From: a virus
Taxonomy: Duplodnaviria > Heunggongvirae > Uroviricota > Caudoviricetes
Length of the DNA: 8,513 nt
Strand: one strand, 5' to 3'
IMG/VR virus record: IMGVR_UViG_2563366822_000013
The notes under the pieces were generated by a model. That model saw only the letters and a program-made list of their open reading frames with translations, did not search any database and was not told the DNA's origin. Positions 1-7,983 of the stretch are shown one piece after another (within the stretch, counting starts at the first letter, position 1; each line of letters starts with the position of its first letter). The position numbers and the translations under genes are program-made.

Positions 1-1053
1 ATGACGTTACCACTAAGAGATTACTATCCTATTGAGCGCGCGGCAAAGTTATTAGACTGCGATATTGATGATCTTATTCATTGGGCTGTGACAGGCTGCA
101 TTCGTATTTGTATAAAAATTGAATCTGCATATGGAATATTAAATATCCCAGATGAAAAAGATGTGGTTAATTTCGATTGTCTGCGTAAGTTTCTGGATTC
201 AGAACCATGTAAATCACGGTTATCTGACCTTGATGCCATTTCAGAAAGGGCGGCAGAACACCATGGTTTTAATTATATAAAAACCAAGTCGAGAATTATA
301 TTTGATTCAATGTGCGAATCTCTAAGTCATTCATATGTAGCGCCCAAATTTGGTGACATAGCAATTGATACTGCATTTGCTTTGTTAAATTATTATAACA
401 GGGGGTTATATTATGGGGAAAATTATCACATATATAGTGTATATCGAATAGCAACGGATGAAAGAGCTGTGGCAGTTGTACCACCAGTATTTAAAGGTAT
501 TCAAGAAAAATACCATAAGTATTTTGTTGAAATAGGCGGCATTTTCGCTTTGGGGGGAAGTTTTTTTGCCAACTATGATTTTAATAAGAAGTTTAAAGCC
601 AACCGAATAATTAATAGCAATATTATAATTGCTTCTGACGTTGATATACATATAGGAGTAATTGTTACTGAGGATGTTTCTTTTGATATTGGTGATTTAT
701 ATATCTTAAAGAGTGATTTTTTAAAAATACAAAATGCTACAAGCTCCAATAGCGAGTTAAGAAAAGATTATGTTAATCCATTGGCAGACACTTTATATTT
801 GTGTGCGGGTAACAATATATTAAGCTCTGAGGATGGAGAGAAAGATATATGCACCAATAAAAACAATATAGAACGATTATCTAAAACAATGAAGGATTTT
901 TTTCGTGCGATGCTTGTTATTCATTATAAAGAACTCGAAAACAATCCGGTAAAACTTGCTGATATATTGACCGCGGAAGCAAAAGAGGCAGGACTCAATA
1001 TGCGCTTTGATAAAAGTACTATATCAAGATGGATTAAGGCATCATCTCAGTAA
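1..1053 (+). CDS. Hypothetical protein, 350 aa, low-GC cargo gene; HTH-like segments at both termini, central domain unrecognised
   Basis: Uninterrupted ORF from ATG at position 1 to TAA at 1051-1053. Visibly AT-rich (roughly 35 percent GC by eye) against about 50 percent for the rest of the window. N-terminal segment IERAAKLLDCDIDDLIHWAVTG and C-terminal segment GLNMRFDKSTISRWIK both have a helix-turn-helix look. No catalytic motif recognised. Start coincides with the window edge, so upstream context is unseen. Confidence 0.6.
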   Translation: MTLPLRDYYPIERAAKLLDCDIDDLIHWAVTGCIRICIKIESAYGILNIPDEKDVVNFDCLRKFLDSEPCKSRLSDLDAISERAAEHHGFNYIKTKSRIIFDSMCESLSHSYVAPKFGDIAIDTAFALLNYYNRGLYYGENYHIYSVYRIATDERAVAVVPPVFKGIQEKYHKYFVEIGGIFALGGSFFANYDFNKKFKANRIINSNIIIASDVDIHIGVIVTEDVSFDIGDLYILKSDFLKIQNATSSNSELRKDYVNPLADTLYLCAGNNILSSEDGEKDICTNKNNIERLSKTMKDFFRAMLVIHYKELENNPVKLADILTAEAKEAGLNMRFDKSTISRWIKASSQ

Positions 1054-1736: not shown

Positions 1737-1766
1737 TTGACTCGCTTTTTTGTCATGGCGTATCGT
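1737..1766 (+). promoter_or_regulatory. Putative sigma70 promoter for the downstream operon (-35 TTGACT, 18-bp spacer, -10 TATCGT), overlapped by palindrome GCAATATTGC
   Basis: TTGACT at 1737-1742 and TATCGT at 1761-1766; the perfect 10-bp palindrome GCAATATTGC lies immediately upstream of and overlapping the -35. Sequence-pattern call only. Confidence 0.3.
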
Positions 1767-1793
1767 TTGCCCGCACCTCATAAAACAGGTGCC

Positions 1794-1980
1794 GGGTTTG
1801 ACAGCCTGAATAAATTGGCGGGTAGCCGCTTGTATTCCGTAATGCGGTTTTTTTGTGCCCGTAATACCACCCTTTCCCGTATTATGGCGGGGCGTAATGG
1901 GGGAGCTTTATGCTCGCTGGTTTCCCAATTTGCCAGTCTGTCAACCCTGTTACGTCTCGCCACCACGTTTGACAGCGTTG
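1794..1980 (+). promoter_or_regulatory. Untranslated leader with three mutually complementary segments (A 1794-1818, B 1925-1947, C 1967-1977), analogous to P4 seqA/seqB/seqC immunity elements
   Basis: Segment A GGGTTTGACAGCCTGAATAAATTGG can pair with segment B CCAATTTGCCAGTCTGTCAACCC over 20 bp (one bulge, one mismatch, one small internal loop). Segment C repeats the 10-mer GTTTGACAGC of A and can pair 8 bp with B. A T7 run at 1848-1854 preceded by short GC stems follows A. The region sits between the putative promoter and the first small ORF. Confidence 0.3.
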
Positions 1981-2840: not shown

Positions 2841-3146
2841 ATGTCTGAAAATCAGAATGTCCGCAATATATACAAAAAAGAATACGCTGGCTTTTTCACA
2901 GAAGATTCCATTGGCAGTCTTGAGGATGTAATAAATGTTATTGCTCTTTTTTCAGCATTGACAGGTGAAATTAATACCAAAGAACGAATTACTGTACAAA
3001 GCGATGAAATGGAATCATTAACTAACATTCTTTATCGGGAATTACGAGCGATTAAATCAGGAATGCATCTTTCTGGCGGGATTTTTTCATGGCACAAAGC
3101 TGAAGCCGCAGGGATTGCTCGGAAACAAGAAGTAACGAGTAATTAA
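2841..3146 (+). CDS. Hypothetical protein, 101 aa, AT-rich
   Basis: GGGGAG Shine-Dalgarno at 2830-2835 and ATG at 2841. Composition (roughly 38 percent GC by eye) is lower than flanking genes. No recognisable motif. Confidence 0.55.
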   Translation: MSENQNVRNIYKKEYAGFFTEDSIGSLEDVINVIALFSALTGEINTKERITVQSDEMESLTNILYRELRAIKSGMHLSGGIFSWHKAEAAGIARKQEVTSN

Positions 3147-3152
3147 TAAAAA

Positions 3153-3177
3153 CCCCACTGCAAAAGGTGCAGTGGGG
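3153..3177 (-). terminator. Perfect 10-bp hairpin (CCCCACTGCA / TGCAGTGGGG, loop AAAGG) with terminator geometry for the minus strand, immediately upstream of the primase start
   Basis: On the plus strand the hairpin is preceded by an A-run and followed by a G-run, so it is not a plus-strand terminator. On the minus strand it is followed by TTTTTATTAATT. It contains the GTG at 3167 that the ORF track used as a start. Confidence 0.35.
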
Positions 3178-3190
3178 GGGGGATTTATAT

Positions 3191-5860
3191 ATGAAACACA
3201 ACACCAGAAAAGAGATTATTAACCGTCTCATCCGTGATTACAATTTTAAAGAAGAAAATAATTATCTTCGCTATGGTGTTTGTCCGCAATGTGGAAAGAA
3301 AGAGCTGTTTACCAGCCTTGAAAGGCCGTACATCGTACACTGTGGGCGCGAAAATAAATGCGGTACAGACCTGCTGACCAAAGAACTTTACCCGGATGTG
3401 TTTTCATCATGGTCAGATCGCTATATCAGCACGAAAGACGAGCCATATGCAGCGGCGGCAGCTTACCTTCAGGAGGCGCGCAATATTGCTGTGGAGCCAC
3501 TGAAGGGGGCATTTACTCAGGAGCGATACCAGGACAAGGAAAACGGCGAACAGGCCGCTACTGTGCGTTTTACGCTGGCTGACGGCGTGTGGTGGGAGCG
3601 CATCATAGACCGACCGGAACGCTTCGCTCGCAAGGCGAATTTTTCCGGCAGCTACAAGGGGTTGTGGTGGGCTTATCCGGGAGCGGATTTAAGCAAGGCC
3701 AAAGAAATCTGGATTTGTGAGGGTATCTTTGATGCCATCAGCCTTAACCAGAATGGCATTGCGGCCGTTTCTGTCATGTCTGCCGTAAACTACCCGGATA
3801 AGGCGCTGGAAGAACTGGCGAAGCTGTGCGGTGATACCCCCCGTCCGGTTATCGTGTGGGCGCTGGATAACGGGCGTGCGGGTGAGCGTTACGCGAAAAA
3901 ACATGCAGAACGCAGTGCCGAAGATGGCTGGAGAACGGCAGCGGCGTTACCGGGTGAAAACAACAATAAACGCGACTGGAATGATTTACACATCGCCGGA
4001 AAGCTGCGTGGCCATGATGTGAAAAGATACCGCTATTACGGTGATTTATTGCTGGCGAAATCTCCAAGAGATAAGGCGCTAATAATGTTTTCCTTTCGTG
4101 AGCGAAAGGAATTTCATTTTACTTTTGATAACCGTGTTTTCTGGTTCAAGCTGGATATTGAGCGCCATATGAAGGCTGTTGAGCGTGTCATTAATGAGCG
4201 AAATGTTGACGAAGATGAAGCGCGAAAAATTGCACTTAAGGAATCCGGTGCAGTAAAAGAAATCGCAAACTGTAACCCAGCGCCGCTTTATTACATTCGA
4301 AACAATGACACGGATGAAGCATGGTATTACTTCCGCGTTACGTTCCCGGATGGCGCTACGGTAAAAAACACCTTTACATCAGGACAATTAACATCCTCAT
4401 CTGAATTTAAAAAACGCCTGTTACATGTGGCAAAAGGCGGCATTTATACCGGAACGACTACGCAGCTTGACGCATTAATAAAAAATGACCTTCCCGCAAT
4501 AAAAGAGGTTATTGGTCAGGATTTTATCGGATACAACAAGGCCATTGGGGCATGGCTGTTTAATGATATTGCTGTTTACAGGGGTAAAACTTATGAAATC
4601 AATGACGAGGATTATTTTGAAATTGATGGCATAAACGCAAAACCATTAAGCGAAAAACCCACATTACAGATTAACTACAAAAAACCGGATGAATTTACAG
4701 AGTCCTGGGTGGAAGATCTCTGGCTGGCTTTTGGTGAAAAGGGAATTATTACCCTGGCTTTCTGGTTGGGCTCCCTGTTCAGCGAACAAATCCGGGATAA
4801 AGAAGAATCCTTCCCCTTCCTTGAAGTCACCGGGGAGCCCGGAACGGGTAAATCAACACTGATTGATTTTTGCTGGCGGCTGTGCGGTCGTGACAACTAT
4901 GAAGGCGTTGATCCAACCAAAGGATCAGAGGCGGGCTGGAAGCGCACCTTTGGACAGGTCGCCGGATTACCTGTTGTTCTGATTGAAGCGGACCGGGGAG
5001 ACAATGCGCAAAAAAGAGGTGCGTTTGACTTCGATAACCTGAAAAGTCTCTATAACGGCGGTGGTATCGGCGTTCGTGGTGTTAAGGCCAACAATAACAA
5101 CACCTATGATCCGGATTTTAAGGGCGCCATCGTGATTGCGCAGAATGCGCGGGTAAACGCCTCTCCGGCAATTATTGAGCGCCTGATACGCATATACACC
5201 GATAAAAAACGCCATTCACCTGATACCCGCCTGGCGGCGAGACGGCTGGAACTTTACCCCGTCGAGAAGGTATCTGGGTTTATTCACCGGGCGGTAAGTC
5301 AGGAACGGGCGATTATGCAAACGTTCCTGGAAGTATCTCCAGCTGAAACGGAACGCCTTTGCGGATGCGAAAATATTCGCCATCCCCGCATCGCCAAAAA
5401 TCACGCACAACTTATCGCGCTGGTCAGGGCGCTGAAATGCGTTATTGATATCCCGGATGAATGGCTTGATGCCACATGTCTGGAGCTGGAACAAATGGCA
5501 ACAGCACAGGTTAAAGCGGCGGCGGCTGACTTGCCGGAAGTGATGGAGTTCTGGGAGGCGTTCGACTTCCTGGACGGCATAACAAAATACGGCGTAAACC
5601 ACTACGGCAAGGGATGCCGCGAAGGGATTGCTATCAGTATTCCGCAGCTGGCACAGGCTGCCGCCATTCACCGCGTGGAGATCCGAACCGATCGCGAAAT
5701 GATTGAGTTGCTCGGAGCCGGACGTTCCCGACCTTTGACAGGCCGCAAAACCATTCGTAGTGAGGTGTCCAGACAGGCAAACGCCGGAAAAGGAGTAGCC
5801 GAAGCCAGAGAACCTGAAGTACTGAAATGCCGGATATTCAGTTACAAGGAGGGGGCTTAA
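3191..5860 (+). CDS. Bifunctional replication primase-helicase (P4 alpha-like): N-terminal zinc-binding motif, TOPRIM primase domain, P-loop NTPase helicase; 889 aa
   Basis: Cys cluster CPQCGKK...HCGRENKCG from nt 3281; TOPRIM glutamate in IWICEGIFDA (E codon 3719-3721) and acidic motif VWALDNGRAGE; Walker A GEPGTGKST (4832-4858), Walker B VVLIEAD, and a downstream IAQN motif. Start set at ATG 3191 rather than GTG 3167, which lies inside the upstream hairpin. Confidence 0.9.
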   Translation: MKHNTRKEIINRLIRDYNFKEENNYLRYGVCPQCGKKELFTSLERPYIVHCGRENKCGTDLLTKELYPDVFSSWSDRYISTKDEPYAAAAAYLQEARNIAVEPLKGAFTQERYQDKENGEQAATVRFTLADGVWWERIIDRPERFARKANFSGSYKGLWWAYPGADLSKAKEIWICEGIFDAISLNQNGIAAVSVMSAVNYPDKALEELAKLCGDTPRPVIVWALDNGRAGERYAKKHAERSAEDGWRTAAALPGENNNKRDWNDLHIAGKLRGHDVKRYRYYGDLLLAKSPRDKALIMFSFRERKEFHFTFDNRVFWFKLDIERHMKAVERVINERNVDEDEARKIALKESGAVKEIANCNPAPLYYIRNNDTDEAWYYFRVTFPDGATVKNTFTSGQLTSSSEFKKRLLHVAKGGIYTGTTTQLDALIKNDLPAIKEVIGQDFIGYNKAIGAWLFNDIAVYRGKTYEINDEDYFEIDGINAKPLSEKPTLQINYKKPDEFTESWVEDLWLAFGEKGIITLAFWLGSLFSEQIRDKEESFPFLEVTGEPGTGKSTLIDFCWRLCGRDNYEGVDPTKGSEAGWKRTFGQVAGLPVVLIEADRGDNAQKRGAFDFDNLKSLYNGGGIGVRGVKANNNNTYDPDFKGAIVIAQNARVNASPAIIERLIRIYTDKKRHSPDTRLAARRLELYPVEKVSGFIHRAVSQERAIMQTFLEVSPAETERLCGCENIRHPRIAKNHAQLIALVRALKCVIDIPDEWLDATCLELEQMATAQVKAAAADLPEVMEFWEAFDFLDGITKYGVNHYGKGCREGIAISIPQLAQAAAIHRVEIRTDREMIELLGAGRSRPLTGRKTIRSEVSRQANAGKGVAEAREPEVLKCRIFSYKEGA

Positions 5861-5862
5861 AC

Positions 5863-6867
5863 ATGCCGATCAGAAAGCTGGATGATGGGCGATGGTTGCT
5901 CGATATCAGGCCATGCGGACGTAAAGGAAAGCGCGTCAGAAGAATATTTGACAGAAAATCGATAGCTGTAGCAACTGAACGGTACATCATAGCGAACGCC
6001 GAAAAACGCGAGTTTATACAGGGCTACCGCGACCGGAGAACCCTCAGCGATTTACTGGAGTTGTGGTGGGTTTATCACGGTCAGCACAGGCGAAAGGCAG
6101 GCACAGATAAACAGCAGCTTGGCAAAATCATTAATGAGCTTGGAGCTGACATGTTTGCGGTAGAGCTCGACAAATTAAAAATCATTGCATGGCGATCGCA
6201 GAAAATTGCGGAAGGGCTAAAGCCGTCCTCAGCAAACAGATATATGAACAGATTATCAGGGATGTTTACAACCCTGAAAAAGATCGGTTTGTGGGATGCA
6301 GAACATCCTGTTCGCGGTATTCCTGTTCTTTACGTAAAGCAGCGAGAGATGGCCTTTTTATCAAAAAACGAGGTCACATTGTTGCTTGACAGACTGAATG
6401 GAGATCAACGAAGGGTTGCGCTCTTATGTCTTTGCACCGGAGCTCGCTGGAGTGAAGCCAGCAGATTACACGGAGAGCAAATAGTTCATAACAGAATCAC
6501 GTTTCTGGAAACCAAAAACGGCAGGAAAAGAACGGTGCCCGTGTCGCAGGAGATATGCAATATCGTAAAAACAAAAGAAACCGGGCGACTGTTTGATGTG
6601 AAGTACAGAGAGTTTTGCCGGGCATTAAAAAAAATAAAACCCGATTTACCGAGGGGGCAGGCTGCGCATGTATTGCGGCATACATTCGCCAGTCACTTTG
6701 TGATGAACGGTGGCAACATTCTTGCGCTACAAAAAATCCTTGGGCATGCGACAATTCAGCAGACTATGGCATACGCACATTTTGCACCGGATTATCTGGC
6801 AGATGCCATGAGATTTAACCCGGTAGCCAACATAGTGATCACCGAAGAAAAAGAGCCAGCAGAGTAA
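5863..6867 (+). CDS. int: Tyrosine recombinase / phage integrase, P2-type; 334 aa
   Basis: AAGGAGGGGG Shine-Dalgarno embedded in the primase 3-prime end; ATG 5863 lies 2 nt after the primase stop. N-terminus MPIRKLDDGRWLLDIRPCGRKGKR resembles P2-family integrases. Box I TGARWSEA and box II HVLRHTFASHF...LGHATIQQTMAYAHF with the catalytic Tyr codon at 6772-6774. Confidence 0.93.
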   Translation: MPIRKLDDGRWLLDIRPCGRKGKRVRRIFDRKSIAVATERYIIANAEKREFIQGYRDRRTLSDLLELWWVYHGQHRRKAGTDKQQLGKIINELGADMFAVELDKLKIIAWRSQKIAEGLKPSSANRYMNRLSGMFTTLKKIGLWDAEHPVRGIPVLYVKQREMAFLSKNEVTLLLDRLNGDQRRVALLCLCTGARWSEASRLHGEQIVHNRITFLETKNGRKRTVPVSQEICNIVKTKETGRLFDVKYREFCRALKKIKPDLPRGQAAHVLRHTFASHFVMNGGNILALQKILGHATIQQTMAYAHFAPDYLADAMRFNPVANIVITEEKEPAE

Positions 6868-6896
6868 CCCGCAGAACGCTACATTCACAGCAAAAG

Positions 6897-6922
6897 AGGT
6901 CAGTTTCCCGCTGACCTTTTTT
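6897..6922 (+). terminator. Rho-independent terminator ending the primase-integrase operon
   Basis: Stem AGGTCAG (6897-6903) / CTGACCT (6911-6917), loop TTTCCCG, followed by a T-run to 6922; begins 30 nt after the integrase stop. Confidence 0.65.
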
Positions 6923-7114
6923 GTTGGCCAGAACCAACGGTAACGGCAATGCAATGGTGGCCATATTGCAGTGGTGCCGCCATCAATTTTTTGCCCCCCT
7001 GAATATCAGAAAGAGTCAAATAATGACGAGATACATTTTAATCACAGAGAGTTAATGAGAATAATACAGAGTAAGTGAGTTTAATTAACATTTTAAAGGG
7101 TCGCGCTAAAGTTT

Positions 7115-7434
7115 GGGGGGGGATGCGCAAAGCGGTTACAACGGTTACAAATTTAGAATTACTTATTTTTGTATTATATATCAATATATTATAACTGGTC
7201 GGATGAGTTACAAAAGCGGTTACAACGCGGTTACATGTAACCGTTTTGTTAGGTTACAGGCGGTTACAGGTTAAGTTTTTAATTGATTGATAATAAAGTG
7301 CTTTTTGAAACCTGTAACCGTTGTAACCGCAGTGTAACCGCAAAGCGGTTACAAACAATATCCATTAAAATCATGTTGTTAAGTGGTGTTTTTGACTGTT
7401 GTAACCGTTGTAACCGCTTTGCGCACCCCCCACC
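7115..7434. repeat. Array of 13 copies of (GC)GGTTACA / TGTAACC(GC), 7 forward and 6 reverse, bounded by 36-bp imperfect inverted repeats; candidate replication iterons or integrase arm-type sites
   Basis: Forward copies start at 7134, 7143, 7218, 7229, 7252, 7262 and 7347; reverse copies at 7236, 7313, 7322, 7333, 7400 and 7409; a degenerate AGTTACA at 7206. Copies are mostly paired at 9-11 bp spacing. Perfect palindromes CGGTTACATGTAACCG (7228-7243) and TGTAACCGC-AAA-GCGGTTACA (7333-7353). Outer arms GGGGGGGGATGCGCAAAGCGGTTACAACGGTTACAA (7115-7150) and its near-exact inverted copy (7399-7434). An AT-rich tract lies at 7151-7200. Confidence 0.75.
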
Positions 7435-7658
7435 GGATTATGAGGCAGAGCCCCAAAACAACTGGCCTGACCTCTAACAAAAATGCAACATCAGTCATTG
7501 ATTTTTTGGGGGCTGTCAGTCACGGGGAGTTGCCCTGTTGTTTGGCAGAAAAATGAAGTATGTACATGCGCGGCGGGGATGGTAAAAAACGTAATACACG
7601 CGGCGCAGTTGCCATAAAAAATCGCTCAAAAGCACTCTTTTTGACGCTATTGTTCATC

Positions 7659-7685
7659 TGCACAAAAGTGCACAAATTTGCACAA
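7659..7685 (+). repeat. Three direct TGCACAA repeats at exactly 10-bp spacing, with a fourth copy at 7751-7757; candidate regulator binding sites
   Basis: TGCACAAAAG / TGCACAAATT / TGCACAATTT at 7659, 7669 and 7679, then GTGCGTGCACAAAAAAC with TGCACAA at 7751-7757, in a region without credible coding potential. Confidence 0.4.
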
Positions 7686-7983
7686 TTTTTTAGAGTAACT
7701 TTTTGCCCATCCGGCCCAGTACTGGCGCGCCCGGAGGGCGATTTCGTGCGTGCACAAAAAACGGTGAGTTTTTCGCGCGCAGGTGACGGGGGAACAGCAC
7801 GCGTTTCAGGGGGTAAATTACATTTTCGCTAAAGACTGCGGGAATGCCTGACCGGATTAGTTTTATCGCCAGCCAGAGCCGTTCTTATGGCAAGAGAGAA
7901 CTGATACGGGGAATGTGAGGAGTGAGCATGGAAACTGTGTGCCTGCGCGTAATACGCGGCGACCGTCGCGGATTTATTTGATA

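Follow-up and report, generated by a model that had tools for sequence, protein, structure and literature searches.

The subject of this analysis is an array of short repeats at positions 7115–7434 of an 8513-bp stretch of caudovirus DNA (record IMGVR_UViG_2563366822_000013), which we propose to be the replication origin of a P4-like phage satellite of Escherichia coli. The whole stretch is termed the window below. Among 5426 complete E. coli genomes, 65–66 contain a match to the array region, in each case chromosomal and never on a plasmid. In strain MIN10 (locus L001), it lies inside an island of ~13 kb between gcd and hpt, and the window constitutes the interior of this island. The genes of the MIN10 island run from a left-end tyrosine integrase (outside the window), through a hypothetical gene (window 1–1053), an AlpA-type regulator, an Icd-like gene and small open reading frames (ORFs), to a Toprim primase–helicase, a second integrase (int2), the array, genes for an ogr/Delta-like zinc finger protein and a P2-family major capsid protein, and MazEF. 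Such a P4-like set of genes marks the island as a satellite of phages of the P2 type. The two genes preceding the array are both on the + strand. The primase–helicase, our candidate initiator, is coded by 3191–5860 (889 aa from an ATG, in an ORF that opens with a GTG at 3167). It is followed by int2, a P2-family tyrosine integrase at 5863–6867. An earlier note on this DNA had placed the array right after the integrase: it does begin 247–248 bp past the int2 stop codon, but int2 is an internal second integrase of the island and not the one at its end, and we regard it as a neighbour of the array rather than its partner.

The heptamer GGTTACA occurs 14 times in the window, with 13 of these copies confined to the 282 bp from 7134 to 7415. 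In 200 dinucleotide-preserving shuffles of the window, the mean count was 0.98 and the maximum 5, with none reaching 14 (0/200); thus, the dense 13-copy array described in the earlier note is indeed far from random. Similarly, 13 of the 16 GGTTACA copies in 32.7 kb of L001 belong to the array, which is the sole repeat cluster of the island. Seven of the exact copies are on the + strand (7134, 7143, 7218, 7229, 7252, 7262 and 7347) and six on the − strand (7236, 7313, 7322, 7333, 7400 and 7409), while a one-mismatch version, AGTTACA at 7206 (+), makes up a fourteenth copy. Within pairs, the repeats are spaced by 9–11 bp.

The array is bounded by two inverted outer arms of 36 nt each, which are 94% complementary and were correctly described before as near-identical. 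The left arm (7115–7150, +) comprises a G8 run, ATGCGCAAAG and the direct repeats at 7134 and 7143; the right arm (7399–7434, −) comprises the repeats at 7400 and 7409, CTTTGCGCA and a C-run. Between them lie a central-left cluster (7206–7268), with the repeats 7206 (+, AGTTACA), 7218+, 7229+, 7236−, 7252+ and 7262+, and a central-right cluster (7313–7353), with 7313−, 7322−, 7333− and 7347+. The four repeat groups are parted by three A+T-rich spacers, where the earlier note had spoken of an AT-rich tract: the first (7151–7212) is 79% A+T, reaching 93% in its richest 30 bp, the central one (7270–7307) is likewise 79% and the last (7355–7398) is 70%, against 55% for the window. The first spacer, whose position is kept in all aligned islands, is a candidate unwinding region. 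Of the two perfect palindromes claimed earlier, one stands, namely the 16-bp CGGTTACATGTAACCG at 7228–7243 within the central-left cluster; the other, TGTAACCGC-AAA-GCGGTTACA at 7333–7353, is a perfect 9-bp inverted repeat with a 3-bp centre and not a strict palindrome. The consensus for integration host factor (IHF), WATCAANNNNTTR, has just two matches in the whole window, both inside the array: TATCAATATATTA at 7179–7191 (+) in the first spacer and TATCAATCAATTA at 7280–7292 (−) at the centre. An Rfam search returned no family matching the array region, and in a by-eye look for DnaA boxes the nearest candidate in the array was 3 positions off the consensus.

We then scanned for the same architecture beside homologous primases using a primase alignment, with one genome per species, which gave 80 primase loci. 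A search with a strict pattern of the layout recovered it at 10 of these, compared to none of 80 shuffled controls, and 4 more loci carry it in a looser form. In all, the architecture recurs in at least 12 other loci with a homologous Toprim primase–helicase, many of which have no adjoining integrase. Thus, the check suggested in the earlier note, a search of related genomes for the motif next to homologous primases, finds it there both with and without an integrase. The common layout consists of two outward-facing pairs at the ends and two clusters further in, with an IHF site at the centre between the clusters; gaps of ~62 bp on the first side and ~50 bp on the second part the pairs from the clusters, and the repeats stand at offsets of approximately 0+, 9+, 73+, (84+), 101−, 118+, 157−, 178−, 192+, 245− and 254−. 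These offsets occur in the E. coli islands and in Erwinia, Pectobacterium, Samsonia, Enterobacter and Arsenophonus, while slightly longer versions are found in Thiothrix, Alkalilimnicola, Halomonas and the phages phiCTX and ESSI2_ev239. The repeat word itself varies by lineage (GGTTACA, GGTCACA, CGTTACA, CATTACA, CCTTACA, CCTTACC, AGGTGA, AGGTAA, GGTAAT and TCACA). A match to WATCAANNNNTTR, differing in its four N bases, is present at about the central position in most of the 17 loci checked for it.

Individual loci illustrate both the constancy of this layout and the variety of its surroundings. In the satellites, the array lies 0.2–0.9 kb after the primase gene, with int2 present or absent. 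The Pectobacterium and Samsonia satellites carry 10–11 copies of (C)GTTACA in an array that begins ~170 bp past the primase, and a search of the surrounding 6 kb gave no int2 homologue; this search was negative at L008–L011, L074 and L078. In the Samsonia island (L010), the primase is instead preceded, at a distance of 3 kb, by a P4-type integrase, and the array is followed by a gene for a P4 beta protein. An Enterobacter island has 11 copies of CATTACA, whereas the P2-like prophage of Arsenophonus (L016) has 13 of CCTTACA between the primase and the portal gene, its P2-type integrase being on the far side. The word is CCTTACC at the Thiothrix locus and AGGTGA or AGGTAA in the Alkalilimnicola and Halomonas prophages. 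Even within E. coli the order may change: Eco_24-2013 (L005) shows primase, array and then int2.

At both ends of the array, a G-run with the motif (T/G)CG(G/C)AAA stands outside the outer repeat pair (window 7115–7133 and 7416–7434). The combination of G-run, motif and repeat pair is present at both ends in most of the 11 loci examined, being weakest in phiCTX; L002, L004, L005, L006, L007, L010, L011, L016 and L025 show the G-run and motif at both array ends. As this part stays nearly constant across lineages while the repeat words change, its reader may be a host factor or a conserved portion of the initiator.

The relationship of the array to its two neighbouring genes was examined in a mosaic test, in which sliding identity was computed over four islands (the window, W, together with L002, L003 and L004). 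The 5′ half of the primase gene is 93–100% identical in all pairs, while the 3′ half, including the part for the C-terminal domain, is variable. Array identity ranks the pairs as L002–L003 > L002–L004 ~ L003–L004 > W–L002 > W–L003 > W–L004, and the part of the primase gene coding for a winged-helix-like domain follows the same order of six pairs (99, 77, 77, 71, 70 and 69%), a comparison confined to these four related islands. In contrast, int2 ranks them differently, with L002–L004 at ~88% and the remaining pairs at ~50–58%; its sliding nucleotide identity is 41–63% between islands, except for L002–L004 at 81–91%. Indeed, int2 behaves as a cassette swapped between islands with near-identical primase 5′ halves. 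The repeat word likewise parts company with int2: in L004 (strain STEC313), nearly all copies read GGTCACA at positions aligning with GGTTACA elsewhere, such that L002 and L004 differ in the repeat with int2 90% identical, whereas L002 and L003 share the repeat with int2 only 58% identical. The 247-bp gap between int2 and the array (6868–7114) is 92% conserved among the four islands, independent of the int2 allele. The co-divergence of the array with the 3′ part of the primase gene, across an unlinked cassette and a conserved spacer, argues for a functional coupling of the two; as evidence for such coupling we regard it as supportive, not decisive. In sum, the array departs from chance and keeps its architecture across loci, its copies change together, and in both its occurrence and its divergence it follows the primase and not the integrase.

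The protein with which it travels matches the Pfam families Toprim_2/Toprim_3 and, weakly, DUF5906, as well as phrog_1139 ("DNA primase", 4e-298). It is 41–52% identical to the primases of phiCTX (41%) and ESSI2_ev239, and has no sequence homology to solved structures. When the C-terminal fragment alone was used as a protein query, it retrieved just 7 close fragments; hence, structure prediction used an alignment excised from full-length homologues. The C-terminal 120 aa (5498–5857, +) are predicted to form the winged-helix-like domain mentioned above, for which the best structural match is the Rep protein of the Staphylococcus pathogenicity islands (SaPIs), and which is our proposed reader of the repeats.

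Taken together, these observations suggest that the array is most probably a replication origin, vegetative or plasmid-type, of a P4-like E. coli phage satellite, served by the primase–helicase coded upstream. It displays repeats clustered far above chance, A+T-rich regions flanked by repeat sets and linkage to an initiator gene, all features of the kind seen in origins. This was one of the two principal ideas of the earlier note, which had likened the repeats to P4-type replication iterons, and the comparative evidence, namely the layout and the primase linkage across loci, supports it. In the mechanism that we propose, the C-terminal winged-helix-like domain of the primase–helicase would bind the 7-mer repeats, with the two outward-facing pairs and the two central clusters of opposite orientation aligning the initiator assemblies head-to-head. 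The DNA would be bent by IHF, bound both at the central conserved site and in the first spacer; one A+T-rich spacer would then melt, allowing the helicase part to load, and the Toprim part would prime bidirectional theta replication.

Several observations weigh against this proposal. Within 6 kb, the array was seen at only ~14 of the 80 primase loci; those without it include prophages built like ESSI2_ev239. In phiCTX and ESSI2_ev239 themselves, the array is 4.4–4.6 kb from the primase gene; for the latter, the likely position of the phage attachment site (attP) between primase and array implies that, on integration, the array would end up at the opposite prophage end. The primase shares just its Toprim and Walker-A regions with the P4 alpha protein (E = 2e-4). 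The co-divergence test covers four related islands, and L005 has retained GGTTACA despite a winged-helix domain that shares only ~40% identity with those of the others. The array is also close to cos, or to the expected place of cos, in several loci, and by position alone it would be compatible with a role in packaging. Finally, the literature that we searched held no experiment on the array or on the phiCTX-type primase family, nor did it yield an experimentally defined origin of these primases or a satellite with two integrases.

A comparison with known systems helps place the array. Its true counterpart is in phiCTX (NC_003278, 35100–35390), where the record annotates a "region 3 containing R3 repeats" with two IHF binding sites. 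This region has 12 copies of GGTAAT in the same layout (pair, gap, cluster, the IHF site AATCAATAAGTTA, cluster, gap and pair), and it is placed between int/attP and cos, much as the array is between int2 and a probable cos region. It differs in its repeat word, in its distance of 4.4 kb from the primase gene and in having a separate annotated attP beside it. The record gives these repeats no function, and no paper testing them was found in the literature searched.

P4, itself a satellite of P2-type phages like the island, also has short repeats in both orientations, with pairs 9–10 bp apart. Its crr, located after the alpha gene and the terminator of that gene, contains ten octamer repeats within 300 bp, some of them paired at a 9-bp spacing. 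Its ori has three direct repeats and one inverted, a 35-bp A+T-rich gap and two direct repeats; window 7313–7415 repeats this count and order with a 46-bp gap, although the polarity of the repeats relative to the A+T-rich gap is mirrored when compared to the type-1 repeats of P4 ori. The repeat is TGTTCACC in P4 and TGTAACC in the array. Both initiators combine a zinc motif with Toprim and P-loop helicase domains, and the C-terminal DNA-binding domain of P4 alpha reportedly reads the repeats; however, the alignable part of the two proteins is limited to the Toprim and Walker-A regions named above. Further, P4 splits the function between ori and crr, 4.7 kb apart, whereas the array is one compact block of dyad symmetry.

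In the origins of the SaPIs and other phage-inducible chromosomal islands (PICIs), an A+T-rich melting region lies just 3′ of pri-rep with a set of repeats on either side, and replication of one such unit, pri-rep-ori of EcCICFT073, has been demonstrated (PMC6092414). Like the island studied here, these elements are phage satellites, and they share with it the arrangement of repeat sets around A+T-rich regions and the location of this block 3′ of the initiator gene. They differ in the initiator family and in gene content, which is P4-like in our island (C4/isrK RNA, Icd-like, ogr/Delta-like and P2-family capsid), and the array has four repeat groups, three spacers and conserved IHF sites. Thus, the array belongs to the lineage of the phiCTX repeat region, and not to that of P4, and yet would work like the origins of P4 and the PICIs.

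Among the alternatives to an origin, the one that fares best is that the array is only a regulatory or copy-control element, for instance an enhancer acting in cis like crr, an operator array for a satellite regulator or a determinant of incompatibility, and not the start site of replication. Its place directly after the primase gene fits P4 crr rather than P4 ori, and it contains two promoter-like matches, both on the − strand, although these are weak and no more numerous than expected by chance. Against this, the island lacks another repeat cluster to act as the true ori, which makes a crr-like role less favoured. The A+T-rich spacers and the IHF sites are united in this one block, as they are in complete origins, and the block is conserved between satellites and full phages that differ in their other annotated genes. 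We accordingly give this alternative a small chance of being correct.

Unlikelier still is a role in DNA packaging, with the array as a cosB-like recognition region bound by the terminase small subunit and IHF, ~350 bp from the probable cos. The candidate cos region, 7658–7824 (+), shares 83% identity with a stretch of P88-like (Xuanwuvirus) phages situated ~0.9 kb past the end of their portal gene gpQ. Within it, the 19-mer GGTGACGGGGGAACAGCAC (7782–7800) has 5 mismatches to the P2 cos sequence and is preceded by three TGCACAA-type repeats (7660–7690). This is probably the cos site of the satellite, held in common with P88-like phages, and the resemblance probably points to such phages as its helpers. 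In favour of the packaging role, repeats and IHF sites are typical of cosB-type regions, such as that of lambda, and the array of the window sits between int2 and the cos-like stretch. The phiCTX counterpart is 170 bp before cosR, and that of L016 lies between the primase and the portal gene. However, the probable P88-like helper, which has GpA-type replication, possesses the cos stretch at 83% identity but not a single GTTACA in the 8 kb around it, and the array is unmatched in 50,697 phage records. The array accompanies the primase family, not a terminase; the annotated satellite islands carry no terminase gene, and in ESSI2_ev239 ~8 kb separate the array from the portal gene end.

The other principal idea of the earlier note was that the array is the attP of the adjoining int2. 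The 7-mers would then be arm-type sites for the N-terminal domain of the integrase, one inverted pair would be the core, and IHF would bend the arms. Given that phages of the P2 family have repeat pairs directly after int, this was a reasonable idea. The likely P2-type attP of ESSI2_ev239 and the corresponding region of P88_4B11 both resemble the array in having 7-mer pairs 9–11 bp apart right after a P2-type int. In the former, six GTCCACA in 224 bp form such pairs in opposite orientation together with a palindrome, and in the latter paired TGTCCAC are in the same orientation. Moreover, int2 retains its catalytic residues, the array contains IHF-consensus sites, and TGTAACC-GCAAAGC-GGTTACA (7333–7353) can be read as 7-bp arms with a 7-bp spacer, a core-like geometry. 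Nevertheless, five independent comparative tests went against this reading, which we reject, its chance of being correct being slimmer than that of the packaging role. Related islands occupy three chromosomal sites (gcd/hpt, tRNA-Arg and tRNA-Thr), each with its own left-end integrase, and at all three the array is internal and unsplit; a look for split half-arrays in the 5426 E. coli genomes turned up none. The same array accompanies homologous primases with no integrase nearby, and in L016 int is on the other side of the primase. In phiCTX and ESSI2_ev239, the annotated attP and the post-integrase GTCCACA cluster, respectively, are blocks separate from the array. The repeat word does not follow the int2 allele, as the pairs L002/L004 and L002/L003 illustrate, and the window contains no TGTCCAC, which is the likely arm motif of the phage integrase closest to int2 (82% aa identity). 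P2-family attP regions differ further from the array in their repeats (TGTCCAC/GTCCACA), their copy number of 4–6, their adjacency to int and their being split on integration. With attP unsupported, the suggestion in the earlier note that the element had been sequenced in excised or episomal form loses its basis.

The ends of the MIN10 island have paired repeats of their own, GTGTATCAAT, at L001 7885–7912, just upstream of the left-end integrase, and at 20606–20629, just before hpt. They are likely to be arm-type sites of this left-end integrase, which integrates the island. In ESSI2_ev239 (L006 26742–26965), which was our comparison standard for the attP hypothesis, the six GTCCACA that follow the integrase gene are arranged as one palindrome and two pairs, one inverted (9-bp spacing) and one direct (11-bp spacing), and a CCCCCACATCATGTGGGGG hairpin lies between these pairs. 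The cluster is likely a P2-type attP.

The last suggestion, an insertion resembling a miniature inverted-repeat transposable element (MITE), drew on the 36-nt inverted arms with their 94% complementarity, and we reject it as having a negligible chance of being right: the flanks TAAAGTTT and GGATTATG differ, with no target-site duplication; there are no dispersed copies but one array per island, which is chromosomal in each of the 66 E. coli genomes and has the same island surroundings at every locus examined (a second place was counted per genome, most likely owing to the dyad symmetry of the array itself); and the arms are largely the repeat pair and the motif conserved in distant lineages.

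What, then, is int2 doing beside a probable origin? It matches PDB 5c6k (molecule name "Integrase", 1e-79) and the HP1 integrase (1aih, 1e-47), and is 52% identical to the integrase gene of Peduovirus P2; the catalytic R/K/HxxR/H/Y are kept in five int2 alleles. The allele of the window is 82% identical at the amino acid level to the integrases of the P88-like phages P88_4B11, PhiR44_2 and Chuche, and that of L002 is 87.5% identical to those of 569R5, 705R2 and Entero_P88, while the allele of L003 has no close phage match (57%). A small ORF just upstream of the primase gene (2841–3146) follows the allele pattern of int2 (L002–L004 98%, other pairs 37–57%); it matches none of the families searched and has no detectable relation to the annotated "derepression protein" of L005. 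A tentative and rather doubtful possibility is that int2, perhaps together with this ORF, is a helper-matching module, swapped so as to match the integrase allele of a P88-like helper. As the satellite has no cognate arm sites, int2 would then act in trans on the attL and attR of the helper. If this is true, int2 could, for example, excise a poorly excising P2-type prophage, and the origin array would merely be the conserved neighbour of a variable helper-interface cassette.

A few other features of the islands deserve mention. Window 1760–1967, within the annotated Icd-like gene, contains the only Rfam matches and is by these an RNA immunity region of the P1/P4 type, with the C4 antisense RNA (1880–1967, 70.5 bits), isrK (1773–1854, 52.3 bits) and a match to c4-a1b1 (1760–1812) slightly below its threshold. 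The gap between int2 and the array holds two elements each composed of a hairpin and a T-run (~6897–6925 and 6930–6993, the second of ~65 nt), which could be terminators or a small RNA. The P2-family major capsid gene and an unannotated gene before it (L001 17812–19793; L004 3538–5476; L005 3952–5841) come after the ogr/Delta-like gene in L001–L003 and before the Icd-like gene in L004 and L005; the P4 record, unlike the islands studied here, has no capsid gene.

These results give a probable function to a conspicuous non-coding block present in 66 of 5426 complete E. coli genomes, as well as in satellites of other Gammaproteobacteria and in P2-family phages, and tie it to the annotated "R3 repeat" region of phiCTX. 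For annotators, it follows that the block should not be called attP, nor an excised element be deduced from it. The behaviour of int2 could represent a new form of satellite–helper interaction. The lineage-specific words (GGTTACA, GGTCACA, CGTTACA, CATTACA, CCTTACA and others) offer a natural specificity series for how a primase–helicase initiator would read its origin, and the primase and the array together probably mark the minimal replicon of this type of satellite.

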